Of a stretch of 64,000 bases of DNA, positions 23,021 to 43,964 are shown in pieces (the stretch's first letter is position 1; the number at the start of each line of letters is the position of its first letter). A program made the position numbers and the translations under genes. Under the pieces are notes generated by a model, which ran no database searches, was not told the DNA's origin, and was given only the letters and a program-made list of their open reading frames with translations. Source of the DNA: Candidatus Berkelbacteria bacterium (GTDB lineage Bacteria; Patescibacteriota; UBA1384; XYA2-FULL-43-10; CAINNR01); assembly GCA_037142675.1 (NCBI GenBank), contig JBAXAF010000003.1:3717-67716 (forward strand), given 5' to 3'.

Positions 23021-24629
23021 TAATAATTTGCACACGCCAATAGTCCTTGCCATCCTAGACGGCTGGGGAATGTCAGCTGCTTGGGGCGGGAATGCAATCT
23101 CAATGTCGTCTCCAAAAACCATGAACTCACTGTGGCGCGATTATCCGCATGCAATTTTGCAGGCATTCCGCCAGGTAGCAGGAAATTACAAAATGGTTGG
23201 AAACTCGGAAATTGGGCATTCCTCTATTGGTGCTGGAAAAATTGTTTTTCAGGATTTGGAGCGAATTACTGATTCAATTCTAAATAAAACATTTTTTCAA
23301 AATGAATCACTGGTCGGTGCTTGCCGTAATGCGACCAATTATAATTCATCATTGCATCTCATCGGACTGGTCTCTGATGGCGGTATTCACAGCCACATTG
23401 ATCACCTGTATGCTCTTTTACGTTTGGCTAAATTTTACAATCTGCCCAAGGTATATATTCACGTTATCACCGACGGTTTAGACACCGACAGTACAAGCGC
23501 GCTTGATTTTATTGTTCATTTGCAAAAAGTTATGGCAGAAATTGGGATTGGAGAAATTGCCACCGTTACTGGTCGACATTTAGCCATGAATCGTGATAAT
23601 CATTGGGAAAATATCACAAAATCACTCCAGGCCATGATCCATGGTATTGGAATATCCGCTCCCTCAGCGGCGGCAGCTATCTCAAACTCATATAAAAACG
23701 GATTTACTGACCAATACATTCCACCTACGGTTATTAAAAATGACCGGGGGCCTGTGGCCAAAATTTTGAATAATGATAGTGTTATCTTCTTTAACTATCG
23801 CCCCGACCGAGCCAGACAACTAACTTTAGCGCTCTTGGGTATGCATAATATGGGAGCAAAATATCCGGCTCCGAATAATATATACTTTACCTCGTTTTCT
23901 TCTTACTACCTGCCAGCGTCAATTGAAGCAAAAACCCATATCGCATTTCCGCCCGAGTTGGTTGAGAACACTTTGGGCAAACTAGTTTCTGATTCGGGGT
24001 TAGCGCAATTTCGTATTGCCGAAAGCGAAAAGTACCCACACATTAGCTACTTTTTTAACTGTGGGGTTGAGGAACCATTTCCTGGTGAGGAAAGAGTGAT
24101 TATTCAATCAGACGAAATCAAAGGTTTTGACCAAAAGCCTCAGATGCAAGCTGCCGAAATCACAAAAAAATTAGTTGCTGCCGTTCGTTCACAAAAATTT
24201 CAATTTGCTTTAGTCAATTACGCCAATGTTGATAGTGTTGGCCATACTGGAGACCTAATTGCCACAACACAGGCCGTAACATTTGTTGATGATTCCCTCA
24301 AAGAGCTTGCCGAGGCGGTCCTAGCAGTTGATGGAACCTTAATTGTGACTGCTGATCATGGCAATGCGGAGCAAATGATTCAAGTTACCACTGGGCATGA
24401 TCGGGAAACTTTTCATAGCTTGAGCCCGGTGCCATTTGTCTTAGTTCGTTCTGATTTGAGAGGGAGAAATCAGGGGGCTAGTTCGTCTGGCGATATATTA
24501 TCCTCAATGATCTCATCAAAAAGATCATTGGCTGATATCGCTCCAACCATTCTAGAATTACTCGGTATTCCTAAACCGCAGTCAATGACTGGGTCTAGCC
24601 TTTTATCGGATATAATTGTTAATAAATAA
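23013..24629 (+). CDS. gpmI: 2,3-bisphosphoglycerate-independent phosphoglycerate mutase (iPGM), copy 2, a divergent tandem paralog.
   Basis: ILDGWG, GNSEIGH, VDSVGH and TADHGNAE motifs. It is roughly 45% identical to copy 1 by eye and overlaps copy 1 by 8 nt. Confidence 0.85.
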   Translation: MDNNNLHTPIVLAILDGWGMSAAWGGNAISMSSPKTMNSLWRDYPHAILQAFRQVAGNYKMVGNSEIGHSSIGAGKIVFQDLERITDSILNKTFFQNESLVGACRNATNYNSSLHLIGLVSDGGIHSHIDHLYALLRLAKFYNLPKVYIHVITDGLDTDSTSALDFIVHLQKVMAEIGIGEIATVTGRHLAMNRDNHWENITKSLQAMIHGIGISAPSAAAAISNSYKNGFTDQYIPPTVIKNDRGPVAKILNNDSVIFFNYRPDRARQLTLALLGMHNMGAKYPAPNNIYFTSFSSYYLPASIEAKTHIAFPPELVENTLGKLVSDSGLAQFRIAESEKYPHISYFFNCGVEEPFPGEERVIIQSDEIKGFDQKPQMQAAEITKKLVAAVRSQKFQFALVNYANVDSVGHTGDLIATTQAVTFVDDSLKELAEAVLAVDGTLIVTADHGNAEQMIQVTTGHDRETFHSLSPVPFVLVRSDLRGRNQGASSSGDILSSMISSKRSLADIAPTILELLGIPKPQSMTGSSLLSDIIVNK

Positions 24630-29939: not shown

Positions 29940-30016
29940 GGGCCGTTAGCTCAGTTGGCTAGAGCACTTCGCTGGCAGCGAAGGGGTCGCTGGTTCGAAT
30001 CCAGTACGGTCCACCA
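29940..30016 (+). tRNA. tRNA-Ala(GGC): tRNA-Ala, anticodon GGC, with the G3:U70 identity pair and an encoded CCA.
   Basis: GGGCCGT-TA-GCTC-AGTTGGCTA-GAGC-A-CTTCG-CTGGCAG-CGAAG-GGGTC-GCTGG-TTCGAAT-CCAGT-ACGGTCC-A-CCA. 77 nt. Confidence 0.85.
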
Positions 30017-31600
30017 CAATGACTTTGTGCCTTCAGATATAGTACTTTTATCGCTCCCAGAGTGGGAAAATGCTGGTTCTAACCTAGCATTTTTTTGTTG
30101 ATAAGATTTGGCAATTTCAGCAAACGGCTCTCGCCAAAAACGATCTCCCACACTGAGTATTCCGTTCTTCATAGTTAAGTTCTTACCTAAGGTTATCAAT
30201 ATCTCACGACGAGCCTGTTTGTCGCCATTTAGGAAGTTAATTTGAGCATAGGCAACGAACTCAACGGCTTTCTCCAATATTTCGGTACAGTTGTTAATTT
30301 TCTTCTCGGCAGTATTCAATCTCTCTATGGCCAAAGCTTTCTCTCTGTTAATTTCAACTTTTCTAGCAACATATTCATTACTATCAACAAAGCCTTCAAT
30401 TTTGGAGTCCAAAAGTCTTTTTAGTTTGTCATCACATTTTAAAACCTCGCCTTGGGCACTTTTTGTGATTAGTTCTTTCTCTCCAAATTCCTCTTCATTA
30501 GATCTTTTCAACTTATTCATGGCAAATTGCAAAAATTCGTCAGGCAGTTTTGTTTCTCCCAACCTTTCAATAATTTGTTTCTCCAACTCTGGCTCGAGTG
30601 TATTTTTCCTGTCTTGGCAATAGAAATCTCGTTTCTTGTGCGTGCAGTGGTAATAAGTATATTCTTTTGACTGCCCCGTGCTCTTAATGTCTTTAGTTTT
30701 AGTTTCGGCTGTAATGGCACAGCCACAAACTTCACACTGAACGGCACCAGTATAGGCAAAATCGCGAGTTTTGGCCCTAGTTTTTCCTCTATCGCCTAAA
30801 AACTTTTGAACGCAGTCAAACTCTTCGAGCGTAACCATTGGCTCATGAGTTGCTTTGTATTGGTTCCCTCGGTATTCTAGTCGGGCAGTATAAAAGATAT
30901 TGCTGAAAGTTTTGTAGATTAAGCTGTAACCCAGTGGCCTAGCCGAGTATTTACCTCGTGGCTTGGTTGTTAGCCCCCACTCCTTGTTGGCAATATCACA
31001 GATCTGCTGTGGATTGTAGTTGCCAGACAGCATCATTTCCCACATTTTCCTTACCAATTCAAAGCGGTCTGGATCTTTTTCAATATGAGCGCTCTTTTTG
31101 CTGTCTCTGACATTAATGTAGCCAATGGGGGCACGGCTTGGATATTCACCCTTTTCAAATTTGCTCAAAACACTGCGTGAAATGTTTGTGCTCAAATCCT
31201 TTACATACTGATTAGCCATTCCCATTTCGAGAGACATCATTACAACATTATCTTCAGGGGCGTATTCTTTTTCGAAAGTCACAATTCGCTTAATAATGCT
31301 TTCTTGTAGCAAATAGCTAATAGTGCCGGCATCAACAGGATTTCTGGCCAAACGATCTAGTTTCCAACAGATAATCCCACTAGCTTCGCCTTTTTGGATT
31401 CTTTGAATCATCTCGGCAAAGAGAGGGCGAACATATGGGTTTTTGGCTGATTTTGCCTCTTGGATAATATCAACAACCACCAAACCCTTTTCCTGGGCGA
31501 TTCGCTTCAAGAATTTGATTTGATCGGGCAACGATTCAATTTGATTGTCGCCACGATCTGTTGATTTTCGGGCATAAATGAAGAATTTTTCTTTAGTCAT
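29951..31600 (-). CDS. Large serine recombinase (resolvase-type catalytic domain, recombinase domain, zinc-ribbon/coiled-coil). The likely start is MTKEKFF at 31600; the ORF is open to 31657. Its last 66 nt read through the 3' half of tRNA-Ala.
   Basis: N-terminal IYARKSTDRGDNQ (catalytic Ser context), and C-terminal CEVCGC...YYHC zinc ribbon with coiled-coil. RBS aggaaaaataatATG. Confidence 0.8.
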   Translation of the reverse strand: MTKEKFFIYARKSTDRGDNQIESLPDQIKFLKRIAQEKGLVVVDIIQEAKSAKNPYVRPLFAEMIQRIQKGEASGIICWKLDRLARNPVDAGTISYLLQESIIKRIVTFEKEYAPEDNVVMMSLEMGMANQYVKDLSTNISRSVLSKFEKGEYPSRAPIGYINVRDSKKSAHIEKDPDRFELVRKMWEMMLSGNYNPQQICDIANKEWGLTTKPRGKYSARPLGYSLIYKTFSNIFYTARLEYRGNQYKATHEPMVTLEEFDCVQKFLGDRGKTRAKTRDFAYTGAVQCEVCGCAITAETKTKDIKSTGQSKEYTYYHCTHKKRDFYCQDRKNTLEPELEKQIIERLGETKLPDEFLQFAMNKLKRSNEEEFGEKELITKSAQGEVLKCDDKLKRLLDSKIEGFVDSNEYVARKVEINREKALAIERLNTAEKKINNCTEILEKAVEFVAYAQINFLNGDKQARREILITLGKNLTMKNGILSVGDRFWREPFAEIAKSYQQKNARLEPAFSHSGSDKSTISEGTKSLWWTVLDSNQRPLRCQRSALAN

Positions 31601-31647
31601 ATTATTTTTCCTATAAAAAAGAGAGGCAATAGCAAGAAGTTTCAAGT

Positions 31648-31714
31648 TACGACACAAGAAACGGCTACTGCCTCACTTTTACAAAAAACTTCTATTGCGT
31701 TGTCTTGTGTCGTG
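31648..31714. promoter_or_regulatory. Imperfect 16-nt inverted repeat (acgacacaagaaacgg / cgttgtcttgtgtcgtga) flanking a roughly 33-nt spacer, just upstream of the recombinase start.
   Basis: Seen directly in the recombinase 5' region, between the 69-aa ORF stop and the recombinase ATG. Confidence 0.35.
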
Positions 31715-31747
31715 ATTATATTGTATCAAATCTAGGTAATAAAGTCA

Positions 31748-31957
31748 TCATGAATTGGGCAGTTTACGAACTAAATCAACAAAGCGAATTAAACTCAAAG
31801 CGTCTTCCATTGCCTCAGCATCGGAGATGTCTTTGCCCCACTTGGCTTTGACCAAAGCTTTGTATTCAATTATGTCCGATTGAGTTAATTGCATTTTTCC
31901 TGAGCAAGGGCAGTCGGGGGAGACGGTACCCCTAGTTATTAATATGGATGAAGGCAT
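31748..31957 (-). CDS. Hypothetical small protein (69 aa), island cargo.
   Basis: ORF only. No recognisable motif. Confidence 0.3.
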   Translation of the reverse strand: MPSSILITRGTVSPDCPCSGKMQLTQSDIIEYKALVKAKWGKDISDAEAMEDALSLIRFVDLVRKLPNS

Positions 31958-31994
31958 TTGAAAAATAAAAAATGAACTGTGCCAAACCTACCCA

Positions 31995-32399
31995 TTATTT
32001 AAATCCCAGCCTTTTTTCTATTTCCTCCCTGGAAAGACCAGTTTCTCTTCGAAAAAAAGCATAAGCTTTAAGTTCTCCGACCTTGTTATACATAATGTTA
32101 TTTCTGAGTTTTTTGGTAATTCTGTAGAAATTATCTTTATTATTGGCAAATTCTGCATCAAAGGCCTCTGCGGTAGGAACTTTTTTCTTCTGAAGCTGTC
32201 CTGCTCGCCAAGCGAGTAGAAAATTATCATCAGTATCAAAATGTTTAATTGGAAACTTGCCATTGAAAGCAATTATTGAACATTCGATGTGTTTCAGGCT
32301 AGTTTTTGGATAGATCAATTTTTTCATTTTTCTCCTTTGTAATTTTTGGTTACATTGATATTTCAAAAAGTGTTGATTGACACCCCTCTTTCTCCCCAC
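31995..32399 (-). CDS. Hypothetical protein. The likely start is the internal MKKLIYPK near 32326.
   Basis: ORF only. Basic N-terminal region. Confidence 0.3.
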   Translation of the reverse strand: MGRKRGVNQHFLKYQCNQKLQRRKMKKLIYPKTSLKHIECSIIAFNGKFPIKHFDTDDNFLLAWRAGQLQKKKVPTAEAFDAEFANNKDNFYRITKKLRNNIMYNKVGELKAYAFFRRETGLSREEIEKRLGFK

Positions 32400-32626
32400 A
32401 ACAAATAATTAAATACAGATGGCTCTTTGTAGAATTGTTTTATCTCAACTCAGGAGCTTGCTTCGCTTAACATTGGGCGTCATTGTATTGACGGAGTCCA
32501 AGAGGTTCCATTCCCTGTCAGCCCGGGGATATGGTTTTAATTGATCAACATTTCAATTTAGATTTAGTGTTGACTCCCTCTGGCTATTGACGCATGCCAG
32601 ATCACTCTTGCGCTTGTTTCCAAGAA

Positions 32627-32647
32627 GTTGAACAAACAATGTTCAAC
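32627..32647 (-). terminator. Perfect 8-bp hairpin (gttgaaca-aacaa-tgttcaac) immediately 3' of the 107-aa ORF.
   Basis: Inverted repeat seen directly. Only a weak U-tract follows. Confidence 0.3.
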
Positions 32648-32670
32648 ATTCCTGTAAGCAAATAATAATG

Positions 32671-32994
32671 TTATTTTTTTCTTGCCCATCTTATTGCCAT
32701 AAAACCCTCATCAACCAGACAATCCCTAACAAAATTCTGAATTTGATTCCCTGAGCCAATTAATGAATTTTCATACCCACTATCCTTGTCGACCAACATC
32801 ACAAGATATCGATTTGTGAGCGGCTTTCCCTCACAATCCTTTGGCATATCAACGGCATTTGCCAGTCGAGCCAAGATCTTTAGCGGACTATGCTTTTTGG
32901 TGTTCAAACAGGGTCTTGGCATACCGGAAGTTTTGAACGGTCTGGAATACCCATTCGGGTCATCAACCCACTTGTCGTAAATGTTGATTTTCAT
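32671..32994 (-). CDS. Hypothetical protein (107 aa), island cargo.
   Basis: ORF only. Confidence 0.3.
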   Translation of the reverse strand: MKINIYDKWVDDPNGYSRPFKTSGMPRPCLNTKKHSPLKILARLANAVDMPKDCEGKPLTNRYLVMLVDKDSGYENSLIGSGNQIQNFVRDCLVDEGFMAIRWARKK

Positions 32995-33408
32995 TGCCGA
33001 GTCCTTTCTTTAAAGGGTTAAAAATCTTTAAGAAAATCCCATAGAACCGGGCAGAACTATGAGATTTTCTTAGCCCAGTTCCTAGTTTTTAGATGAGAAA
33101 TTGAAGAACTAATTCAGAGAACGCTGAGTACTAATCCATTAAAAAAAACCGAAAATTTACAATTTATGTAAATGCCCGGTTGTTCCGTCGACTTAATAAA
33201 TTACTAAAAGCTTACAGAAGTATGGTCTGAAAGTCAAACAACATTTAACAACAAAGAAATTTGCTATTCCTGAAGCAATCATTTGATATTTAATGTTTTT
33301 AGCTAGTATATTTCATTTTGCGAAAAAGACTTTCAATTGCTAGGACAAAGTGGTACAGTAAACACTAGAAAACATTCGGGCATGGACTAAAAATTCCCTC
33401 GGCCTATT

Positions 33409-36400
33409 TTGGTCGAGTATCTTGGCTTAATAATTTTAAAAAATATGGCTGACTATAGCCAAAAATTTGACGCAAAAGCATATTGGGCAACTAAACCGTT
33501 TTGTTCTGTTTGCAAAAATCACAAGGTGAAAAACGGAACAATTTGTTATAAATGCAAGGGAAATATGGAAAAAAACAAAATAGCTAACACAATTGAAGAG
33601 AGCTTTGATACTGAGGATGAAAAAGCTACATCATCTACTACTACCAAAATTCCTGAGAAATTCTCTCAAATAAAATTTGATAAAAGTTTTATTAAAAAAC
33701 TATTGGACAAACTAAAGGTTGGCAATGCCAGATCGATTCACCTCAACGCGGTTCCTGGTCGATCTGCTACACGATTAGACCTGCACCAGTTATCAGAAAT
33801 TGATCCTGAAATGCCACTCGATTTTATCAAAACTATATTGAACAAAGAAAGCTTCTCATTCTCTATTTCATTTGACAAAATTGATCTAGGAGAGCTGGAA
33901 GATAGTGAGAAGAAAAAACTTGTGCTTATTTCTAAAAGACTAAATGCACTTGTAATAGAAAAAGAAGATAATTTTTTGGAATTTGGTCTCAAGAATTTTG
34001 GTTTTGGTTATCCAATATTAATAAAACGTGACCAAAATGACCCAACAAAAATTATTAAAGCGCCTCTTTTCATCTGGCACTTAGACATCGAAAGATCATA
34101 TCAGAATAAAAATAACTGGACCATTAAAAAAGATGAAGATTCGCCGATCAAGATTAATGAAATACTGATCTCTCACCTCTCAAAAGATGAGTCAGTCAAA
34201 ATAGAAAAAATCTCCCAAGAAATTCTCGAAGATGGAATACTAGATGAGACCGAACTTCTAGAGATGAGTAGCAATATATTGTCGCAACTAAATTCTAAAG
34301 TTGATAATTTATCGATTAGAATAGATAAGTGTCCTGATTCGAAAGAGATTGAAGCAATCGCAAATTCTAAACCATGGATTCAATGGAGTGGAATTTTTGG
34401 GATTTATCGTTCGCAAAATGAAACAATCATCCACTCGACAGAAGAACTGCTTGAGAGATTCGATGAATTTGAAAGTGAAAAGTTGGTATTAGAGCAATTT
34501 CAAACATCCAGCATATCTGCGGTTGAAACTGACCCTAGCAAAGAAGAGATTGTTAACACATTAACGAAAGATGAAATTAAGTTAATCCAGGGGCCACCAG
34601 GAACTGGTAAAAGTCAAAGTATTACAGCTATTGTGTCTAATGCACTTGCAAACAACGCTAAATGTCTTATTGTCTGCGAAAAGAAAACGGCGCTTGATGT
34701 AATAAATGAAAATTTGAAAAAGATTGGGTTGGACAGCTACTCAATCCTTATCGACGATGTTAACAAAGACAGGAAAAAAGTCATCCAAAAAGCACGTGAT
34801 ATTAAAGAATCGCCATATTACCCGTCATTCGCGAGAAAAGATTTTGAAATTAAATATGAAAAATTTTGTGAGCTAAAAAATGATATTAATCTAAAGAGCG
34901 CTGAGACACTTCAAAAAGTTTTAGGAGATATTTCCTGGAAGCAGCTAGTCGGTTTATATTTGAAATTTTCTAAGTCGGGAGATATAGATAAAATTGCTTC
35001 AGAAATTAACTACAGCCAACTAAAATTTGACCACCAAGAATACTCTGACTACCTTGCCATGGTAGAAGAATCCGTTTTTCTTTTTGATGATTTGGAAAAA
35101 AATTCAGAGGAAGTCTTTTCCTTATTGCGCGACACATCGTTTTTAACTCCTTACCGTTCCACTGACAAAGAAAATTTAAAGGATGAAATTGAAATTATTT
35201 CTCAAATTGCAAAATCCTCTGAACAATTTCTGATCAAAAATGCACAGTCTGGTTTCGAAGAAAAAGGAATTTCGTTGTTTAAGCCGAAATCGATCGTAAA
35301 ATGCAAATTGCAATTATCTGAATTGAAACAAGCACTAAAAGAAATTATTGACTTGTATGAGGCCGGGATTAAATTAGTTGGTGATGAGTTTAACAAAAAG
35401 GGCTTGGTCCAAAATGTTAGGTACCAAGTCTCAGCTTTATTTGGCACCAAACATAAAAAAATATATGCTATCAGAAGAAAAATTCCCACATTACTAAAAA
35501 ATGCCACTCAGATTATCTCGGAATTAGAAAAGTTTGGTTTTGGAAACTTAAGCCTAAAAAAATTTGAAGCACACGAGTCGTGCAAAAGCTTAAAAAATAA
35601 TTCTATAGATACTTTAGGGGAAGTCAAAAAAATTGAATCAAAGATAGATCAAATCAAGAAAAATGAAGACGAATTAATAAGCATCTACAAAAAGTTAATG
35701 GAATCTGCAGAAAAAAAGATTTTTGACCTTGATATCAAAAGTTATATTTCCTTAGGAAATCGTGCTCAGCTAGTTAAATTCTTCAAGGACATGGGTGATG
35801 TCATCGAAAATGTTCGTTGCCATTTGGATGCTTACGAGAGTTATCATAACTGGAAATATTTTTGCAGTAATAAGAATAGTCTCGAATTACAGATTCTATC
35901 TGCACTTAAAGATTCTCCGCCAGAAAACTGGAGAAACATTTTTATTGCTTGGTATTATCGTGGAACATTACAAAATTATGAAAATACAACAAAAGTCGGA
36001 TTTCACAAGTCAAATTCTAAATTACAACAGCTATCTGGAGTCTATAATGAGCTCTGTGATTCCCAGATTCAACAAATTAAATCAAATTGGGGAAATAGCA
36101 GAAGCTACCAAATATCCAAAATTGATTATAACTTCAATACCCTATTTAGCTTGAGAAAAAACAACGCGGGGCCAAAAAGTTCGCTTAGAAAAATTATTGA
36201 CAAAGATTTTGATTTATTCACCACTTTGTTTCCAGTTATTTTAACTAACCCTGCAGCTGCAAATGCTATTTTTCCTCTCACCCAGGGATTGTTTAATATT
36301 GTCATCTTTGATGAGGCTAGCCAGTTGAGAATCTCTGACACTTTTACAAGTCTAATCCGCGGACAATATAAAATCATCGCTGGAGATGAACATCAGATGC

Positions 36401-37608
36401 CTCCTTCAAGCTATTTTCAAAGTACTGCTGAGTTGCTAGATAACCCTGAAGGAGAAGAGATTGAGTCAACTGCAGACGAAGATGAGCAAGCGGTTTTAGC
36501 TGAAAGTGAATCCTTGCTTCAATATGCCAGTGATTTAAAGAATGTGAACAAGTCGTACTTGGATTTTCACTACCGCTCAAATCATCCTGCTCTAATCGAC
36601 TTTTCAAACTGCGCTTTTTATGGAGGAAATCTGGTCCCTTTTCCACCGCAAGAAATTTACACCCCAATAGAATTCAGAGCTATCAATGGTCGTTACGAAA
36701 CTAGGACCAACCCATCAGAAGTTATCGAAATAATAAAAATCATCAAGAATGAAATTCATGCTGATCAAAAAGGTAAATACCCATCAGTTGGGATAGCCAC
36801 TTTTAACATAAACCAAAGGAATCTGATTACCGAGGCATTAAATGAATGGGCGGAAAAGGATCCATCTTTTGGCAGAAAACTTCTGGAGTTAAGGGAGTGT
36901 GGTTTGTTCGTAAAGAATTTGGAAAATATTCAAGGTGACGAAAAAGACATTATCATTATCTCAACTACTTATGGGATTCAAGAAGACGGAAGTTTTTCGC
37001 AGAATTTTGCGAGACTAAATAGAATTGAAGGCTATAAATTGCTGAATGTTCTAATTACCAGAGCTAAGCACAAACTTTATGTTTGCACTTCAATTCCAAA
37101 AGAAAAATATCTTTCTTATGCTGACATTATACAAAACGAGGGAAATAACAAAAAGGGCATTCTGTACGCCTATCTTGCATATGCCGAAGCAGTCTCAAGC
37201 CATAATACCGAATCAGCAGAAGGAATTTTAAGAACATTAAAAGAATACAGTTATGAAAAACCTAGAATTATTTCGAACTCAGATGGTCTTTCCGAGTCCC
37301 CATTTGAAGAAGAAGTCTACGAGATGCTTTGTGACCAATTCAAGGCTGAAAATGTAATCCAGCAACATAAGATTGGTGGTTTTCGCCTAGATTTTGTCAT
37401 TAAAGCAAAATCAACAGATATTGTCCTGGAATGTGACGGGAAAGCATATCATCAGTCCGAAGAAGCGTACGCTCATGACATGTACCGACAAAAGGAGCTC
37501 GAGAAACTAGGTTTTGTGGTTTACAGAATCTGGTCAACAAACTGGTTTCAAGACAAGGAAATTGAAATGCAAAAACTAGTCAGATTTGTCGAATCTAAAA
37601 GCCAGTGA
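33409..37608 (+). CDS. SF1 (DNA2/Upf1-like) helicase with an N-terminal Cys-rich region, a DUF4011-like domain and a C-terminal DUF559/Vsr-like (PD-(D/E)xK) endonuclease domain. It is a helicase-nuclease and a candidate defence protein (Hhe-like architecture). The likely start is MADYSQ at 33445.
   Basis: Walker A LIQGPPGTGKSQSITAIV, Walker B-like IVIFDEASQL, motif VI-like LNVLITRAKHKL. The C-terminal GGFRLDFVIKAKSTDIVLECDGKAYHQS...YRIWSTNWFQDKE matches the DUF559/Vsr-like endonuclease consensus. N-terminal CSVC...CYKC. Confidence 0.7.
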   Translation: MVEYLGLIILKNMADYSQKFDAKAYWATKPFCSVCKNHKVKNGTICYKCKGNMEKNKIANTIEESFDTEDEKATSSTTTKIPEKFSQIKFDKSFIKKLLDKLKVGNARSIHLNAVPGRSATRLDLHQLSEIDPEMPLDFIKTILNKESFSFSISFDKIDLGELEDSEKKKLVLISKRLNALVIEKEDNFLEFGLKNFGFGYPILIKRDQNDPTKIIKAPLFIWHLDIERSYQNKNNWTIKKDEDSPIKINEILISHLSKDESVKIEKISQEILEDGILDETELLEMSSNILSQLNSKVDNLSIRIDKCPDSKEIEAIANSKPWIQWSGIFGIYRSQNETIIHSTEELLERFDEFESEKLVLEQFQTSSISAVETDPSKEEIVNTLTKDEIKLIQGPPGTGKSQSITAIVSNALANNAKCLIVCEKKTALDVINENLKKIGLDSYSILIDDVNKDRKKVIQKARDIKESPYYPSFARKDFEIKYEKFCELKNDINLKSAETLQKVLGDISWKQLVGLYLKFSKSGDIDKIASEINYSQLKFDHQEYSDYLAMVEESVFLFDDLEKNSEEVFSLLRDTSFLTPYRSTDKENLKDEIEIISQIAKSSEQFLIKNAQSGFEEKGISLFKPKSIVKCKLQLSELKQALKEIIDLYEAGIKLVGDEFNKKGLVQNVRYQVSALFGTKHKKIYAIRRKIPTLLKNATQIISELEKFGFGNLSLKKFEAHESCKSLKNNSIDTLGEVKKIESKIDQIKKNEDELISIYKKLMESAEKKIFDLDIKSYISLGNRAQLVKFFKDMGDVIENVRCHLDAYESYHNWKYFCSNKNSLELQILSALKDSPPENWRNIFIAWYYRGTLQNYENTTKVGFHKSNSKLQQLSGVYNELCDSQIQQIKSNWGNSRSYQISKIDYNFNTLFSLRKNNAGPKSSLRKIIDKDFDLFTTLFPVILTNPAAANAIFPLTQGLFNIVIFDEASQLRISDTFTSLIRGQYKIIAGDEHQMPPSSYFQSTAELLDNPEGEEIESTADEDEQAVLAESESLLQYASDLKNVNKSYLDFHYRSNHPALIDFSNCAFYGGNLVPFPPQEIYTPIEFRAINGRYETRTNPSEVIEIIKIIKNEIHADQKGKYPSVGIATFNINQRNLITEALNEWAEKDPSFGRKLLELRECGLFVKNLENIQGDEKDIIIISTTYGIQEDGSFSQNFARLNRIEGYKLLNVLITRAKHKLYVCTSIPKEKYLSYADIIQNEGNNKKGILYAYLAYAEAVSSHNTESAEGILRTLKEYSYEKPRIISNSDGLSESPFEEEVYEMLCDQFKAENVIQQHKIGGFRLDFVIKAKSTDIVLECDGKAYHQSEEAYAHDMYRQKELEKLGFVVYRIWSTNWFQDKEIEMQKLVRFVESKSQ

Positions 37609-37621
37609 ATAGTGCAAGATT

Positions 37622-39157
37622 ATGATAAATATTTACGTTACTGCCTCAAAACTTTATGATTATATTCAGTGTCCGCATAAAGTATGGCGGGATATTTACG
37701 GTCCGCAGAATGAAAAAATTGTCGAATCCAATCCTTTCATTGAGCTACTCTGGAAAAAGGGAATCCAACATGAAAAAAGGGTTGTCTCTGGCATAGGCAG
37801 CTTTTTAGATTTGAGCCAAGGGGATCTTGATGAAAGATTTAAAAAAACCCTAGAAGCTCTCAAAAATCATACGCCGCTGATTTACCAGGGTGTGATAAAA
37901 TATGGCAACTTATTCGGCATTCCAGATTTGCTGGAGCTAATGCCGGATGGCACTTATGTACCCATTGATATAAAATCTGGGTCTGCTTATGAAGGTGAAG
38001 ATGAAGAGCAAGATGCTGAAGGTAAACCAAAGTTGCATTACGCTGTCCAGCTGTGCCTTTATAACGACGTTTTGAAAAAGCTTGGGTTTGCCAATCATAA
38101 CAATGGCCAAGTTATTGATATTCGCCTTGATAAAGATGAATACAATCTTGTTGCACCTAAAGGGACAAGAGACAAAACAACTTGGTGGGATAATTACGAG
38201 AAGATTAAAAATGATGTCTGGCTGCTACTTAATGATGAAATAAGAAACAAACCGTCATATTCAGGTAAATGTAAATTATGCCCCTGGTACAAAAGTTGTA
38301 AAAACTGGTGTCAGGAAACGAACGATTTAACCAATATCTTTAATCTTGGAAGAGCCAACCGCGATAGAATCAACGAAGATCTTGGTATAGATAATCTGAC
38401 AGATTTGATGTCGGTTGATATTCCGTCCGTGATGGAAAAAAAAGAGTTGGAAAAAAAATCGGGCGATAAGAATTTTCTATTCAGAATTTCCGATAATACC
38501 CTGGAAAAGGCAGTTGAAAGGGCTAGAGTCTCACTAATTACAAAAAAACCAGTAATCTATCAACCAGAGGTATTCCCTGATGTCAGTTATGAATTATTCT
38601 TTGATATTGAAGACGATCCAACTCAAGAATTTGTCTATCTACACGGTGTATACGAAAGGCACAATCAAGAGGAACGGTTTCTGGATTTTACTGCTAGAGA
38701 AATAAGTTCTGCAGCTGAAAAAGCTGCTTGGTCAGATTTTTGGCAATATATTGAATCACTTCCCCAAGATGACTATTCTGTATACTATTATTCACATCAC
38801 GAAAAGACAACTTACAAAAGGATGCAGAAACTGTACCCGGATGTAATTTCCGCGAAAAAACTAGAAGAGTTTTTTGACAATCCAAATGTTATCGATCTAT
38901 ATAGCGTCATTCGCTCTAAAACTAATTGGCCGCTTCCAAGTTATTCCCTAAAGGAAATCGCTGTTTACCTCGGTTTTAAATGGAGAGATGAAACGCCATC
39001 TGGCGCGCTCTCAATCCAGTGGTTCAATAATTATATTGAACAGAAAGATCCTGAAATTCTTAAGAGGATTCTGCTTTACAACGAAGACGATTGCAAAGCG
39101 ACAATGGTTATCAAGGATGCGATCGTTAATCTAGAAATAACAGAAAGGATTATATGA
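37622..39157 (+). CDS. RecB/Cas4-like PD-(D/E)xK nuclease with C-terminal Cys cluster, fused to a predicted PolB-like 3'-5' exonuclease (RNase H-like) domain. TM0106-type architecture.
   Basis: N-terminal YDYIQCPHKVW, GIPDLLE...PIDIKSG (D..E.K), CKLCPWYKSCKNWC cysteines. The C-terminal ELFFDIEDDP...VYLHGV motif is typical of RNase_H_2-like exonuclease domains. Confidence 0.6.
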   Translation: MINIYVTASKLYDYIQCPHKVWRDIYGPQNEKIVESNPFIELLWKKGIQHEKRVVSGIGSFLDLSQGDLDERFKKTLEALKNHTPLIYQGVIKYGNLFGIPDLLELMPDGTYVPIDIKSGSAYEGEDEEQDAEGKPKLHYAVQLCLYNDVLKKLGFANHNNGQVIDIRLDKDEYNLVAPKGTRDKTTWWDNYEKIKNDVWLLLNDEIRNKPSYSGKCKLCPWYKSCKNWCQETNDLTNIFNLGRANRDRINEDLGIDNLTDLMSVDIPSVMEKKELEKKSGDKNFLFRISDNTLEKAVERARVSLITKKPVIYQPEVFPDVSYELFFDIEDDPTQEFVYLHGVYERHNQEERFLDFTAREISSAAEKAAWSDFWQYIESLPQDDYSVYYYSHHEKTTYKRMQKLYPDVISAKKLEEFFDNPNVIDLYSVIRSKTNWPLPSYSLKEIAVYLGFKWRDETPSGALSIQWFNNYIEQKDPEILKRILLYNEDDCKATMVIKDAIVNLEITERII

Positions 39158-39738
39158 CTTCAATTTGCCCATATTGCAACAATGACACCGGCAAGGTAAT
39201 AACAATGAAAAAGAAATGCCCAGTTTGTACAAAAGTAATATTTGTTCGAAATGGAAAAGTTGTGACCGATGAAGAAAAATTTATTATTGATTGGCAAAAA
39301 TATATGGATTTTATGGTGCCAGATATTGAAGCTCTGAGATTTGACGTCGAAAAAACACTTAAGGCTAGATTTGGGAAAGAACCTGGCGCACCTGACTTGA
39401 TATGGGGGATGTTCAACCAAATATTATTGAAACTAAGTGACCCGTGGGACCTTTCAATTATTTATAGGAATATGGCTAAGTTTCGCCAGTCGGAAGGCAA
39501 TAAAGACGCGTATATAAAGCTGATGAAGACAGCAATGTGCTTAGAGGTAAGAGATAGTGCAGAAAAAGGGTGGGCTAATAATATTGTAATAAAAAATATA
39601 GATGATGGACTAGTTTGCGATGAGTGCAAAATTATCAATGGCAAGATCTACCCAGTCAAAGAAGCCTTAGCCAATTTCCCTTTGCCACATAATAAATGCA
39701 CTAGCGACGCGTGCAGATGCACATATTTAACCAAATAA
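39154..39738 (+). CDS. Zinc-ribbon protein (N- and C-terminal CxxC pairs), translationally coupled to the upstream nuclease (ATGA overlap).
   Basis: CPYC...CPVC at the N-terminus and CDEC...C.SDACRC at the C-terminus. 4-nt start/stop overlap. Confidence 0.45.
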   Translation: MTSICPYCNNDTGKVITMKKKCPVCTKVIFVRNGKVVTDEEKFIIDWQKYMDFMVPDIEALRFDVEKTLKARFGKEPGAPDLIWGMFNQILLKLSDPWDLSIIYRNMAKFRQSEGNKDAYIKLMKTAMCLEVRDSAEKGWANNIVIKNIDDGLVCDECKIINGKIYPVKEALANFPLPHNKCTSDACRCTYLTK

Positions 39739-39748
39739 TTTCAACTCA

Positions 39749-40996
39749 TTGAAGCAACTAAAAATTTCGGAATTAAATAAATTAATTTCTAACCAGGTTA
39801 ACAATCTGGTCAATTTGGAAGTAGAAGGTGAAATATCTGAGTGGAAGATGTTTGGTGGTAAAACATTTTACTTCAAGTTGAAAGACGAAAAATCATCCGT
39901 CTCAGCGATGACAAATATCTTTCAGTTATCTAATTGGAGGGATTTCGAAGAAGGAATGCTTGTTAGGACGACAATTTCTGTTAAGTTTAACCAATCAAAG
40001 GGCAATCTCTATGCTTGGGTTGAAGAGATGGCCCCATCAGGAGAAGGCGCTCTTAAAATCGCAATTGAAAAATTAAAAAAGCGGCTCCTTGCAGAGGGAT
40101 TATTTTCGCAAGAAAGAAAAAGATCTTTGGTCCGGTACCCCCATAAAATTGGATTAATTACTTCTCGTGATGGAGATGCCATCAAAGACTTTAAAAAGAT
40201 TATTAATGCCAGAGCAGGAGGATTGGAAATATTTTTTTACCCAGTAAGGGTTGAGGGGAAAGATTCGGTCAGGGAAATAACTGAAGCATTTACTTTTTTC
40301 AATAATTTCAAGGAATCCTTGGATGCGATTGTGATAATTCGAGGAGGTGGAAGTATCGAGAACCTCCATGCTTTCAATGATGAAAAGACGGCAAGATGTA
40401 TTGCTGGCTCGAGATTCCCTGTTGTCTGCGGGGTAGGACACGAGAATGACATTAGCTTGTGTGACTTATGTGCTGATGTAAGAGCCTCAACTCCTTCAAA
40501 TGCTGCGGAGCTTCTAGTAGAGGACCAAGTTTATACTGTTTCGATAATTAATACATCAATATCTAATATTGGTAAAAACATTAAAATCAAAATTGCTGGG
40601 GATATTCAATATCTGAGCACAATCAATATTCCGATCTCTTCAGCTCTAAAATCAGCGATTGGAAACAAAATGTCACTAATAAGAGAAATTAGTTCCACAC
40701 TCCAATATTTCAAATCAAAGTTTAAAAATATCGAGCAACAAATTAATCAATTCGTCGATTCGATAAAAAGAATAATTTCTTATAAGTTTGACTTGTCTAA
40801 CCAAAGTCTCCGCCAAACATCAGCTTTTCTAAACTCAGTAAGTCCGAAAAATATTATGTCGATGGGTTATTCAGTTGTAAAAGATGAAAAGAGACAGATA
40901 ATTAAGAGTTCCGGCCAATTAAAATTGAATTCAATTATTAATACTTATTTCTACGAAGGCTCTATCCAGGCCAAAGTTGAAAAGAAAGAGGTGTAA
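39749..40996 (+). CDS. xseA: Exodeoxyribonuclease VII large subunit.
   Basis: OB-fold N-terminus. Core motifs GLITSRDGDAIKD, IIRGGGSIENLHAFNDEKTARCIAGSRFPVVCGVGHENDISLCDLCADVRASTPSNAAE. Confidence 0.85.
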   Translation: MKQLKISELNKLISNQVNNLVNLEVEGEISEWKMFGGKTFYFKLKDEKSSVSAMTNIFQLSNWRDFEEGMLVRTTISVKFNQSKGNLYAWVEEMAPSGEGALKIAIEKLKKRLLAEGLFSQERKRSLVRYPHKIGLITSRDGDAIKDFKKIINARAGGLEIFFYPVRVEGKDSVREITEAFTFFNNFKESLDAIVIIRGGGSIENLHAFNDEKTARCIAGSRFPVVCGVGHENDISLCDLCADVRASTPSNAAELLVEDQVYTVSIINTSISNIGKNIKIKIAGDIQYLSTINIPISSALKSAIGNKMSLIREISSTLQYFKSKFKNIEQQINQFVDSIKRIISYKFDLSNQSLRQTSAFLNSVSPKNIMSMGYSVVKDEKRQIIKSSGQLKLNSIINTYFYEGSIQAKVEKKEV

Positions 40997-41203
40997 ATGC
41001 CAGAAGAAAATAGTTTTGCTAGCAAAATGGAGGAATTAGAAAAAATTAAGGCGAAGTTTGAATCAGGAAACTTCGATCTCGAGAAAGATTTGCCCTTATA
41101 CAAAAAAGCTGTCGCATTAGCAAAGGAGCTCAAAGGTCACCTTAAGAAAATTGAAAATGAAATTATTGAAATTGAGCAAAAAGATTCTGACTTGGTAGAG
41201 TAA
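40997..41203 (+). CDS. xseB: Exodeoxyribonuclease VII small subunit.
   Basis: 68-aa helical protein (FEESMEELEKI-type) immediately after xseA. Confidence 0.75.
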   Translation: MPEENSFASKMEELEKIKAKFESGNFDLEKDLPLYKKAVALAKELKGHLKKIENEIIEIEQKDSDLVE

Positions 41204-41581
41204 GTTGAAAAAAGACTCATTTTTTGAGATAATTAGCTCGTTAATTATACAATTTGTTACGCCTAAACTTTAATGAAAATTAAGGCATGGCGTTAAAACC
41301 ACATGAATAGAGATGGTCTTATGACTTGCATCATTCATGTGGTGTACGCCGGAAACGGTGTATGGAGCCCCGAAAGGGATACTTCGCTAGCTCATAAGGC
41401 CTTTTTTGTATCTTTGGGGGCAACCACCGACAAAAGTTTAGTTCTGTCTGCAAAAACACTTAAAAATGTATCAATTTGTCTCTTGATTGTTCAATTTTGT
41501 CTAACAATCTTAAAATTAGTTAATGCTGGAATGAATAAAAATATTCAATAATGCCAATAAAATGGTAGACAAGGTCAAATC

Positions 41582-41743
41582 ATGAAGAAAAATTATTGGG
41601 TTGTCGGGATTGCTACTCTAGTTCTAATTGCTGGTTGGTTTTACTGGTTTCAATTGAGACCAAGTAACGTCAGAAAAGACTGCAGTATGTGGAAAATAGA
41701 CAGAGAGTATCAGCAATGCCTGAGGGAACGAGGCATAAAGTGA
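41582..41743 (+). CDS. Small membrane/secreted peptide (53 aa). Not in the ORF track because it is under 60 aa.
   Basis: ATG with an upstream AAGG. Hydrophobic core WVVGIATLVLIAGWFYWF. Its stop overlaps a GTG start of the next ORF. Confidence 0.3.
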   Translation: MKKNYWVVGIATLVLIAGWFYWFQLRPSNVRKDCSMWKIDREYQQCLRERGIK

Positions 41744-42225
41744 AAAAACTGAGCTTAAAAAATATATATAGCAATTACAATTTCAGAGTAGTTTTTATAT
41801 TACTAACAGTCACTTTGACCATATATTTGCTGGCGAGTGCTTATGTAAAATATTTTGAGGTTGAAGAGATAGGTCATCAACATGAAAAAAATAGTTATTC
41901 AGTTCACTACTTGATTAATATTTTTCCAGAGGTTTCAGATCAACCACTGGTTGTTGACGAGATGCCCATAGTGTCTGATACAGAAAAACAGAGAGCAATA
42001 GGCTTCATTGTTAGAGATTGCGAAGAAAGTGTCTGTCCGCTTTATAGACTGATAACTGCGGAGCTGCCGTCTGGTGAAGTTATAAATTTCCAAGGAAAAA
42101 CAGGTAGTGGTGCTGTTGAATGTTACCTGAATGAATCACTAGATTTCCAATCAAAAGATGTATGTCTCGATACTAATGGCAAGGGCTGGGGGGTTCAATT
42201 AATTGAAAAGTCGACAATTAAATGA
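41689..42225 (+). CDS. Membrane-anchored hypothetical protein. The start is uncertain (ATG at 41716 or GTG at 41740).
   Basis: TM helix VVFILLTVTLTIYLLASAYV followed by a Cys-containing extracytoplasmic domain. Confidence 0.4.
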   Translation: MENRQRVSAMPEGTRHKVKKLSLKNIYSNYNFRVVFILLTVTLTIYLLASAYVKYFEVEEIGHQHEKNSYSVHYLINIFPEVSDQPLVVDEMPIVSDTEKQRAIGFIVRDCEESVCPLYRLITAELPSGEVINFQGKTGSGAVECYLNESLDFQSKDVCLDTNGKGWGVQLIEKSTIK

Positions 42226-43028
42226 GCAAACTCCAAGAGAGTAATTTTATAAAAATGTTTGGCGGCAGAACTTTTTCTTCCGAGGAAGAAATGGAAGCTT
42301 TTGTTGTTGCTAAATTGCCAAGTATTTTAGAGGTTGGAGATGGTTTTGTTGTACAACAAGATTACGCGACTGGCACCAGCGGACTACATAGCAAAAGAGC
42401 TGATATTGTCATCAAAAATTCCAGGGGAGATATTCTAGTTGTTTTTGAACTGAAAAGGAGTTACTGGCTCCGATTTGGAGATCAACGGAATAATGCGAAA
42501 CAGCAACTAATGGACTACTGCCAAAGGTTCGGTGCTCCTTATGGGGTGATACTATCTGAAAAGTATTGCTACATAATGGCCATCCACCCTGACGGTGCTT
42601 GCAAGCAAGTGTCAGCCTTACCGCCAATTCAAGAGATACAACCACGCCAGGCTATCAATTTTGGGCCTGAGATTAACAAAGCCCAAAGACAAATTTCTGT
42701 TTCGGCTGAGGCTGCCAGTCGGGAGATCCATCAGGGAATTGATGATCAAGCCAGGAAGGCCCTGAAAAAATACACGATTATTGGGATTACTCTTGTGATT
42801 CTGTTCTTCGCTGGTCTGGCTGTTTGGACTTATCAAACCAAAATGTTCACCTGTGAAAATATCAAAGGTAATATGTCCATGACTAACGGCCAGACGTCAA
42901 AGATCTACCATACAAGGGAGAGCAATTTTTATGACAAGGTAAAGATTGATACTGCTCAGGGAGATAAGGTCTTCTGCAGTGAAGCTGATGCCTTGAATGC
43001 TGGGTTTCGAAAGGCTATCAACAAGTAG
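42222..43028 (+). CDS. Restriction-endonuclease-like (PD-(D/E)xK, HsdR-N-like) domain protein with a central TM helix and a conserved C-terminal module (YHTRESNFY...FCSEADALNAGFRKA).
   Basis: RADIVIKNSRGDILVVFELKRS matches the D...(E/D)xK nuclease-fold core. TM IIGITLVILFFAGLAVW. C-terminal module of unknown function. Confidence 0.45.
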   Translation: MSKLQESNFIKMFGGRTFSSEEEMEAFVVAKLPSILEVGDGFVVQQDYATGTSGLHSKRADIVIKNSRGDILVVFELKRSYWLRFGDQRNNAKQQLMDYCQRFGAPYGVILSEKYCYIMAIHPDGACKQVSALPPIQEIQPRQAINFGPEINKAQRQISVSAEAASREIHQGIDDQARKALKKYTIIGITLVILFFAGLAVWTYQTKMFTCENIKGNMSMTNGQTSKIYHTRESNFYDKVKIDTAQGDKVFCSEADALNAGFRKAINK

Positions 43029-43152
43029 ATCAAATAATTCTAGCATTTATAGCTATAGCTTAAAATTACAGAGCTTTGCCGGTGATCTCGCAGAAGACTG
43101 GAAAAATTGGCGAAGAATAAATTTAACAGCATTAAATTGGTAGGAGTTCAAA

Positions 43153-43311
43153 ATGGTTTTCTTTATTATCTGGGTTGTAGCACTAGCTTTCATTTTGCCT
43201 GATAGCTGGGGTTGGGTGAATTATTTGTTAGGACCAATTTTGGCAATACCACTCGCTTATTTAACAGGTCTAACAATAGGATCATTATTTGCTAAATTTG
43301 ATAAAAAATGA
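43153..43311 (+). CDS. Small hydrophobic membrane protein (52 aa). Not in the ORF track.
   Basis: RBS aggag, then ATG. Two predicted TM segments. Its stop overlaps the next gene's start (ATGA). Confidence 0.35.
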   Translation: MVFFIIWVVALAFILPDSWGWVNYLLGPILAIPLAYLTGLTIGSLFAKFDKK

Positions 43312-43775
43312 CAATACACCTAGGGAAACCTGATTACAAATGCTCAAAATGCGGTGAGATTTTTTTCCCGTATAAGATTGATATTGAATGTCCTAATTGC
43401 GGAATAACTATTCCAAGCAGTGAAGCTAAAAATTATTTTGATTCAATCAAGGAAATAGCCAAGTCAATGAAGATACATAAATGCCTATACGGTAGGTTCG
43501 TTCCATGGTCTTGGTCTTATGCCAACACGGGAGACCATATTCAGGATTTACTCTTCCAACTTTTTGATTTACTTGAAGCTAAAAAACCAAAGAATGAAGA
43601 GAAATTTATAACTGAGACACTTGAAAACGATTTTGACTGGGGCGACAAGGAATATTTAAAAAAACATATTGGAAATATAGCCGTAGACCTTTTGCCTATT
43701 TATAATGGAATGATAAAAAACATCTCAGCCAAAGAAAAATTAAAAATAAATGATTCATACGGCATTCCATTTTAG
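43308..43775 (+). CDS. Hypothetical zinc-ribbon protein.
   Basis: CSKCGEIFF...CPNCG at the N-terminus. Otherwise no recognised motif. Confidence 0.35.
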   Translation: MTIHLGKPDYKCSKCGEIFFPYKIDIECPNCGITIPSSEAKNYFDSIKEIAKSMKIHKCLYGRFVPWSWSYANTGDHIQDLLFQLFDLLEAKKPKNEEKFITETLENDFDWGDKEYLKKHIGNIAVDLLPIYNGMIKNISAKEKLKINDSYGIPF

Positions 43776-43947
43776 TTCCAAGAAGAATCATCACACAGCA
43801 AAACTTTTAATTCGCATCTCTGGGATATAGACAAGTTCTTTTGATTCCATTATAATAGTTCTGACACGCAATACTGCGTTCCACCAAGAATGGGTTGTAA
43901 AGGCTAAGACGTCCCAATGGGTCGGGATCCCGTTGGTGTGGGACAAG

Positions 43948-43964
43948 TCCAGTACGGCCCACCA
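43948..43964 (+). repeat. att-like direct repeat of the tRNA-Ala 3' end (17 of 18 nt), putative island right boundary.
   Basis: tccagtacggcccacca versus tccagtacggtccacca at 29999-30016. Confidence 0.55.

Follow-up and report, generated by a model that had tools for sequence, protein, structure and literature searches.

A putative defence cargo operon combining an Hhe-like helicase-nuclease, a TM0106-family nuclease and exonuclease VII in a tRNA-integrated serine-recombinase island of Candidatus Berkelbacteria

Among helicase-nucleases, Hhe is reportedly the single-gene defence system of the 2020 study by Gao et al. It is handled as a one-gene system in other reports as well (PMC11232893; PMC12278908). 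Hhe, PDC-S37 and ProA all place a large superfamily 1 (SF1) helicase and a C-terminal endonuclease of the Vsr/DUF559/MTES_1575 type in one protein. Helicases are also known to act together with separate exonucleases. MrfB, a PolB-exonuclease-like DEDD 3'-5' exonuclease, takes part in mitomycin repair alongside a helicase (PMC11194089; bioRxiv 2025.09.15.676423), and in Druantia type III the accessory 3'-5' exonuclease DruH processes DNA ends and thereby licenses the helicase-nuclease effector DruE (bioRxiv 10.64898/2026.05.13.724313). Here we describe a locus in a 64,000-nucleotide stretch of DNA, analysed as a whole and referred to below as the window, from a metagenome-assembled genome (MAG) of Candidatus Berkelbacteria; the locus recurs in several freshwater metagenomes. 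While Hhe, ProA and PDC-S37 are one-gene systems, the Hhe-like gene of the window (g1) stands in an operon with genes for a TM0106-family nuclease (g2), a rare zinc-ribbon protein (g3) and the two subunits of exonuclease VII (xseA and xseB). On balance, it seems probable from the sequence evidence that a mobile element carries these genes as a cargo operon and that they form a five-gene unit unwinding and degrading the DNA of phages or rival mobile elements. The defence function we infer from context.

The five genes are tightly packed on the forward strand, with intergenic spacings, read from the sequence, of 13, -4, 10 and 0 nt. They comprise g1 (33445..37608), g2 (37622..39157), g3 (39154..39738), xseA (39749..40996) and xseB (40997..41203). 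The first three had been recognized in an earlier sequence-only reading as co-directional genes separated by a 13-nt gap and then a 4-nt ATGA overlap, and this was confirmed: g1 ends at 37608, 13 nt before g2 starts at 37622, and the ATGA at 39154-39157 is common to the stop of g2 and the start of g3. The two genes that follow were missing from that reading. Both subunits of exonuclease VII are encoded and each exceeds its family cut-off, XseA in TIGR00237 (322.7 bits, cut-off 180; Exonuc_VII_L 1.7e-67) and XseB, also listed in the gene table, in Exonuc_VII_S (PF02609; 2e-10, 40.9 bits, cut-off 24). A promoter and terminator scan gave the same counts as shuffled sequence, and thus no operon boundaries were drawn from it.

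The g1 open reading frame (ORF) extends over 33409-37608 and from its TTG codon encodes the 1399 aa of the sequence-only reading, but the probable start is the ATG at 33445, giving 1387 aa in agreement with gene callers and homologue alignments. That reading had divided the protein into four parts. The SF1 core and the DUF559/Vsr-like nuclease are borne out by Pfam (MTES_1575 4e-24, AAA_12 3e-16, AAA_11 3e-10, DUF559 4e-7), while DUF4011 (PF13195) reached 16.7 bits and was the one domain call to stay below its gathering score (22.2) in the hidden Markov model searches; the Cys-rich N-terminus is not conserved among 21 relatives. The same DUF4011 model gave 20.4 bits in the g1 relative of locus L085, and remoter relatives have a precomputed PF13195 match. 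Alignment of g1 with those 21 relatives (41-79% identity) showed every SF1 motif and the D/E/K residues of the nuclease to be invariant; in 1387-aa numbering, the unchanged positions include K389 of Walker A, D956/E957 of motif II and D1316/E1329/K1333 of the endonuclease. The nearest solved structures by sequence are the SF1B helicases IGHMBP2 and Sen1. These features point to an SF1B helicase of the Upf1/DNA2 type with a C-terminal Vsr/MTES_1575 PD-(D/E)xK endonuclease.

Among PADLOC profiles the top match of g1 was PDC-S37 (3.7e-128, 427 bits), a profile without a curated cut-off, of which the best stretch covers positions 708-1341 of 1550; Hhe was the runner-up (1.5e-68). Against NCBIfam, g1 scored 297.8 bits for Hhe (NF042953; residues 863-1394 on profile positions 1189-1680), under the equivalog cut-off of 2000, and 426.9 bits for ProA (NF058533), under that of 1500. 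Only the C-terminal ~650 residues align with Hhe and ProA, whose profiles have ~1800-1900 positions compared with the ~1390 aa of g1. It follows from the two cut-offs that g1 is neither Hhe itself nor ProA, so that the Hhe architecture proposed earlier applies as far as an Hhe-like helicase-nuclease is concerned and no further. Judged by its motifs and profile matches, g1 is a predicted new member of the Hhe/PDC-S37-like helicase-nuclease group. One relative, 69% identical over the full length (P0130), is labelled as coming from a Promethearchaeota (Asgard) archaeon, which implies inter-domain transfer or a binning error. In L100, a Bub-type ubiquitin-like system (BubE, ThiF, Multi_ubiq; 1776-3610) and LexA are encoded within a few kb of a g1 relative and its recombinase.

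The second gene, g2 (511 aa), had been read as a Cas4-like nuclease joined to an RNase_H_2-type exonuclease in the TM0106 architecture, and our analysis substantiated this assignment. The protein scored 243 bits against TIGR03491 (cut-off 97.45), its residues 6-499 covering positions 1-460 of the 462 in the profile, and matched RNase_H_2 (2e-27) and PDDEXK_1 (6e-10) in Pfam. In an alignment with 31 relatives, the Cas4-type cysteines C17/C217/C220/C226, the residues D102/D116/K118 and the DEDD residues D328/E330/D425/Y486/D490 are invariant. In an AlphaFold2 model (pLDDT 88), the N-terminal half matches Cas4 (4r5q and 4ic1, probability 1.0), ACE1, AdnAB and EXO5, and the C-terminal half the exonuclease domains of the DnaQ type and of family-B polymerases. 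Sequence and profile searches of the PDB, including one with a g2-family profile, returned nothing for g2. The N-terminal half shares with Cas4, AddB, AdnAB and EXO5 the one-plus-three Cys pattern, the D/E/K residues and the fold. However, g2 differs from Cas4 in that it falls under the Cas4 cut-off (31.8 bits for TIGR00372, equivalog cut-off 65), is fused to a DEDD exonuclease and has no cas genes among its annotated neighbours.

The neighbourhoods of g2 were studied in a sample of 80 metagenome loci of its closest relatives (57-76% identity), plus others. A scan of genome contigs with the single g2 sequence yielded one locus only, its patterns being too specific; the alignment-based rescans covered metagenome and viral collections. 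Apart from the window, three diverged loci bring together a helicase, TM0106, XseA and XseB, and the four loci show three gene orders. The order helicase, TM0106, g3, XseA, XseB of the window is matched in L099 by helicase, TM0106, a 363-aa protein, an HRDC-XseA fusion and XseB; L014 has helicase, WYL/REC, XseA, XseB, TM0106 and TerB_N, and L095 has helicase, WYL, TM0106, HRDC-XseA and XseB. The components of the module are reassorted between loci. Compared with the window, L014 is 76% identical in TM0106, 66% in XseA and 75% in XseB and only 24% in the helicase, while L099 is 68% identical in g1, 69% in g2 and 30% in XseA, the last being 42% identical to the XseA of L095 and grouping with it. 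The helicases of L014, L095 and L070 find their best PADLOC match in PDC-S37, as g1 does. XseA was found beside the g2 relative in 4 of 6 loci with an SF1 helicase and in none of 75 without one (p=9e-6); when at least 5 kb was required on both flanks, the figures were 4 of 5 and 0 of 18 (p=6e-4). Two further loci, L070 and L085, the latter beside an ISL3 transposase, carry the helicase and TM0106 only. The combination of helicase, TM0106 and XseAB was not found described in PADLOC v2 or in the searchable literature. PADLOC v2 profiles gave no match for XseA or g3, the literature searches on PDC-S37, ProA and TM0106 returned nothing informative, and in the defence literature searched exonuclease VII appeared only as the host enzyme trimming retron msDNA or as a laboratory reagent.

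A related arrangement is found on conjugative plasmids of Alphaproteobacteria, Sphingobium pNIN3 (L225) and Aminobacter pAA03 (L226), where the annotated TM0106 protein has ~1100 aa. In pNIN3 its C-terminal half is an SF1B helicase with the Walker A motif IQGPPGTGKT and matches to IGHMBP2, DNA2 and Upf1; the Aminobacter protein appears to be a similar fusion, judging by its equal size. The pNIN3 gene lies between WYL regulators and is directly followed by SbcD/Mre11-like and SbcC/Rad50-like genes, and in pAA03 a similarly annotated SbcCD-like pair is located nearby on the opposite strand. The plasmid fusions thus repeat the theme of the window, namely a TM0106 nuclease, an SF1B helicase and a two-subunit repair-type exonuclease, often with a WYL regulator (as in pNIN3). 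They differ from the window in combining helicase and nuclease in one polypeptide and in having SbcCD-like genes instead of XseAB; moreover, their TM0106 part is ~24% identical to g2 and they are known by annotation only. Both plasmids also carry HEPN near the fusion, and pNIN3 DUF3883. A putative functional link between g1 and g2 is supported by their recurrent adjacency (L085, L099) and by the plasmid fusion.

Regarding the mode of action, the SF1B helicase would load on the DNA of an invading element at ends, nicks or replication intermediates and unwind it, and the Vsr-like domain of g1 would nick the DNA. The displaced strands would be degraded by g2, through its Cas4-like 5' nuclease and its DEDD 3'-5' exonuclease, joined by exonuclease VII, which is bidirectional and specific for single-stranded DNA. 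A regulatory or adaptor role would fall to g3, as to the WYL proteins found in its place in other loci. Taken together, the parts would amount to a self-contained machine for unwinding and shredding DNA, with functional parallels in RecBCD, AddAB and AdnAB. These enzymes likewise combine an SF1 helicase with a PD-(D/E)xK (Fe-S) nuclease, and the g2 model aligns to the nuclease domain of AdnAB; however, the operon has another subunit architecture, adds exonuclease VII and is mobile cargo rather than a set of core genes, and, in contrast to them, we know of no Chi-type regulation for it. We infer the functional analogy from these shared parts.

Two other described systems are close in concept. 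MrfA/MrfB (YprA/YprB) of Bacillus subtilis also pair a helicase with a PolB-exonuclease-like DEDD 3'-5' DNA exonuclease. However, MrfA is an SF2 DUF1998 helicase, unlike the SF1B helicase g1, and MrfB has a TPR tail, no Cas4-like domain and a DEDDh site, whereas the Y486-x3-D490 of g2 shows, from the alignment, the DEDDy spacing. MrfB/YprB presumably belongs to RNase_H_2, the Pfam family of the g2 C-terminal half, and one g2 relative is labelled 'YprB ribonuclease H-like' in UniRef. Mechanistically, Druantia III is a precedent for an immune system in which an exonuclease partners a helicase-nuclease, but there is no homology: DruH, an Ig-domain protein, is related neither to TM0106 nor to XseA, and DruE is a YprA-family SF2 helicase.

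The third gene, g3, encodes 194 aa; a zinc ribbon at the N-terminus and a Cys cluster at the C-terminus enclose a core of four helices. Its earlier description as a double zinc-ribbon protein agrees with the two invariant Cys clusters that we observed (C5/C8/C22/C25 and C155/C158/C182/C187/C189). The C-terminal part shows weak similarity, under the cut-off, to MuF/SPP1-gp7; sequence and profile searches identified no Pfam family and no PDB relative, and no fold match was obtained at E<1. Five relatives were found among 5.8 billion proteins, and neither a helicase nor TM0106 was seen beside those looked up or fetched, which lie on short contigs. Conversely, outside the window's own lineage, g3 had no counterpart in 84 loci of g2 relatives or in the loci of g1 relatives. 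The proposal that g1, g2 and g3 form a unit was therefore not upheld; the conserved partners are XseA and XseB. In other loci the slot of g3 holds WYL regulators or an unrelated 363-aa protein, and g3 is a replaceable occupant of the variable slot of the module. The 363-aa gene (L099 13634-14725) has no Pfam or PADLOC match, and by eye the C-terminus of its product resembles a Vsr/DUF559-type endonuclease motif (ELDIF...IEYQGQQH). Two g3 relatives have a C-terminal transmembrane tail (L006 2206-3045; P0003, P0004). In L006 and L007 a serine recombinase gene lies ~0.4 kb from the g3 relative and three tRNA genes are close by, and the g3 family may hence be associated with mobile elements.

Most g2 relatives have no helicase beside them and are located at the 3' end of gene runs with restriction-modification (RM) enzymes of Type IIG (Eco57I/MmeI-like), Type I or Type III. 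Other runs include SNF2 proteins and N6_N4 methylases, and Gabija, Shedu, GmrSD, SIR2 and PIN occur as neighbours elsewhere. Among the genes directly upstream (n=104), N6_Mtase was counted 13 times, Eco57I 11 times and ResIII 5 times. An RM family was present in 32 of the 80 loci. Of the 80, 12 have a serine recombinase, 30-37% identical to that of the window, in the vicinity of the g2 or g1 relative. TM0106 may be a general accessory of RM systems. In L045, L056, L060, L058, L043 and others, the g2 relative directly follows a Type IIG (Eco57I/MmeI-like) RM fusion enzyme inside serine-recombinase elements, and a conserved 71-aa gene is often found upstream in such loci. Relatives of g1 and g2 with 60-79% identity were found in phyla of the Candidate Phyla Radiation (CPR), in Nitrospirota and in Proteobacteria, and for g1 in an Asgard MAG; this level of identity across distant phyla indicates that both families have spread horizontally.

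The operon lies inside an integrative element, a serine recombinase gene of which had already been noted; our analysis adds candidate attachment (att) sites. On the left, tRNA-Ala(GGC) (29940..30016, forward strand; ARAGORN, Rfam tRNA 64 bits) provides a candidate attL core in its last 26 nt (29991-30016) and overlaps the 3' end of the gene for the large serine recombinase (29951..31657, reverse strand; ORF of 568 aa, or 549 aa from position 31600 according to gene callers; Resolvase 5.6e-18, Zn_ribbon_recom, Recombinase). On the right, a repeat search identified as candidate attR a co-oriented remnant of the tRNA-Ala 3' end that agrees in 21 of 26 nt (43939..43964, forward strand). It is the sole other site in the 64 kb with at most five mismatches, and none of 40 shuffles gave one. 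The GC content between the sites (30017-43938, 13.9 kb) is 0.367, compared with 0.399 in each flank, and that of xseA and xseB is 0.358 and 0.338. The flanking genes belong to core metabolism, with cofactor-independent phosphoglycerate mutase, acetate kinase, pyruvate:ferredoxin oxidoreductase and NUDIX genes on one side and sortase and leucyl-tRNA synthetase genes on the other. The tRNA repeat, the GC shift, the recombinase and the core-gene flanks together show a ~14 kb integrative island containing xseAB: the locus is a tRNA-integrated serine-recombinase island. A prophage origin was rejected, since PHROGs revealed no phage structural genes in the element and tblastn of g2 against phage genomes gave no match.

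Between the recombinase and the operon, the ORF lists contain three small ORFs on the reverse strand (69, 134 and 107 aa; 31748..32994), without family match except a sub-threshold HTH_68, which could be regulators or a directionality factor. Downstream of the operon are three forward-strand element genes (178, 268 and 155 aa; 41689..43775; ORF lists, gene table) with no defence or phage family match. The 268-aa protein (42222-43028) shows a sub-threshold HSDR_N-like (PD-(D/E)xK) N-terminus and a C-terminal 'sunset' domain (NF051437), and in L075 a 53% match to the 'sunset' part adjoins a g2 relative. In L027 and L060, too, a tRNA and the recombinase gene overlap, and in L045, L058 and L223 a tRNA is located near that gene. 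In the flanks, the leucyl-tRNA synthetase (47502-50306) carries an unusual NUDIX insertion at residues ~372-487, and the phosphoglycerate mutases are tandem paralogues of 507 and 538 aa (21497-24629).

The element also encodes a LOOT RNA (RF03000; 41260..41382, forward strand), which begins 56 nt after the end of xseB and covers model positions 1-121 of 121 with 69.7 bits (gathering score 46.4). An 82-aa ORF that overlaps it (41303..41551, forward strand; ORF list), a public gene call without family match, is probably spurious because of this overlap. Rfam identified further copies in L014 (1641-1763), L099 (6619-6742), L095 (191-309) and L100 (16562-16692), and a model built from these found no additional one in 1.08 Mb of loci. 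LOOT is also present in L223 (4535-4667; also in L224), L140 (1287-1423) and L150 (5520-5654). The copy in L223/L224 had been predicted beforehand in the gap between recombinase and cargo, and was found there, beside a tRNA-Lys. In L223 (6781-12127) the element backbone is the same, but the g1 relative, 70% identical, is followed by a gene for an RmuC-domain nuclease and not by TM0106; RmuC is reportedly a domain co-opted by the Shield defence system (PMC10270631). On two viral or mobile contigs, found by starting from the RNA, LOOT is located beside a recombinase 55% identical to that of L014 (L140), and together with homologues of the post-LOOT gene, the 532-aa and 166-aa genes and the ParB-methylase of L014 (L150). 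The cargo of L150 (5791-13265) consists of a reverse transcriptase, an AAA_5 (MoxR-like) ATPase and a VWA/CobT_C protein, and may be another defence-type module. LOOT as a component of the nuclease module was rejected, given that the same recombinase backbone has different cargo in L150, L140 and L223; it is instead a marker of the backbone of this element family, and the operon, replaceable by g1 relative plus RmuC or by the L150 genes, is swappable cargo and not backbone. LOOT always lies upstream of a co-directional gene, at 17-114 nt and in the window at ~300 nt, and DUF4352 and Ltp-like lipoproteins are among the products of these downstream genes. Its position suggests a leader or regulatory RNA. 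Literature searches on LOOT returned nothing informative.

A bolder interpretation, which we put forward only tentatively, is that helicase-nuclease, TM0106 and exonuclease VII make up a distinct, undescribed immune system, that TM0106 is a general accessory effector of RM systems and that LOOT, as a cis-acting or regulatory RNA, controls the expression of cargo in this element family. The element would then bring its own DNA end-resection and shredding machinery and recruit an exonuclease of housekeeping type, XseAB here and SbcCD in the plasmid version, while RM systems of many types would acquire TM0106 to finish off cleaved DNA.

The five-gene cargo unit has to be weighed against simpler views. 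If g1 were a self-sufficient defence protein of the Hhe/PDC-S37 type, then g2, g3 and xseAB could be separate cargo or optional enhancers sharing its operon. The one-gene treatment of Hhe in the reports cited above fits such a view, as do the g1 relatives (62-79% identical) that stand solo in L098, L101 and L102, precede an AAA_13 gene (L100) or precede RmuC (L223), and the fact that g2 relatives mostly occur without an SF1 helicase. We nevertheless find it unlikely in view of the operon-like gene spacing, the specific tie of XseAB to helicase-positive g2 loci, the fusion of TM0106 to an SF1B helicase on plasmids and the occurrence of the same four functions in three gene orders with reassorted components. 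That xseAB are ordinary housekeeping genes, with g1-g3 inserted upstream and the five-gene run accidental, appears highly improbable. XseA and XseB are canonical by their models, tight spacing is common in compact CPR genomes and attR rests on a single imperfect repeat; yet XseAB recurs in the helicase-TM0106 modules of three other diverged loci in varied orders (in L014 between helicase and TM0106, in L095 and L099 with XseA fused to HRDC), XseA lies beside the g2 relative in none of the 75 loci that lack a helicase, and xseAB sit, with element-like GC, between the candidate att sites. Chance neighbourhood was thus largely rejected on account of the recurrence in modules and the position inside the att sites.

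The main functional rival sees the operon as a module for DNA repair or recombination that joins exonuclease VII to a helicase-exonuclease pair of the MrfAB kind and serves the host or the element rather than immunity. The repair role of MrfAB, the match of XseA to a housekeeping equivalog model, the SbcCD-like repair-type genes of the plasmid versions and the neighbours of some g2 relatives (LexA upstream in 2-3 loci, RuvB or enolase in a few others) would be in line with it. It is disfavoured, and in our opinion quite improbable, because of the cargo status of the operon, which sister elements replace by RT/AAA/VWA genes or RmuC, the strong enrichment of g2 relatives beside RM and known defence genes, and the horizontal spread indicated by 60-79% identity across distant phyla. 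Furthermore, the helicases match defence-candidate profiles, and the modules of L014 and L095 include WYL regulators and a TerB_N/SngA-like gene, typical of defence loci. The precedent of MrfAB, the LexA neighbours and the fit of XseA to TIGR00237 also count against the five-gene defence unit that we prefer, and so do several other points. The combination is a minority state, 6 of 81 g2 loci having an SF1 helicase, and 3 of 8 sampled contexts of g1 relatives (gene contexts having been read for six relatives) are the solo helicases of L098, L101 and L102 amid ordinary genes. The 80-locus sample is limited to the closest metagenomic relatives, many of them on short contigs, with genes called by a crude caller. 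Finally, the attR repeat is imperfect (21/26 nt), and tRNA-end remnants sought in five other recombinase loci were not found there, in spans that are possibly too short.

Should the five genes function as a unit, the components recruited by mobile immune systems would come to include exonuclease VII, a classic housekeeping enzyme, and the widespread, unstudied TM0106 nuclease family would gain its first functional context. The fusion loci of pNIN3 and pAA03, which come from cultured Alphaproteobacteria, are experimentally tractable relatives of the module. In addition, the orphan 'metagenomic' LOOT RNA gains a genomic home in CPR bacteria, in serine-recombinase elements that target tRNA genes and whose defence-type cargo is swappable. 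CPR bacteria, which include Candidatus Berkelbacteria, have reduced genomes, and the island described here is an example of their acquiring DNA-degrading machinery.

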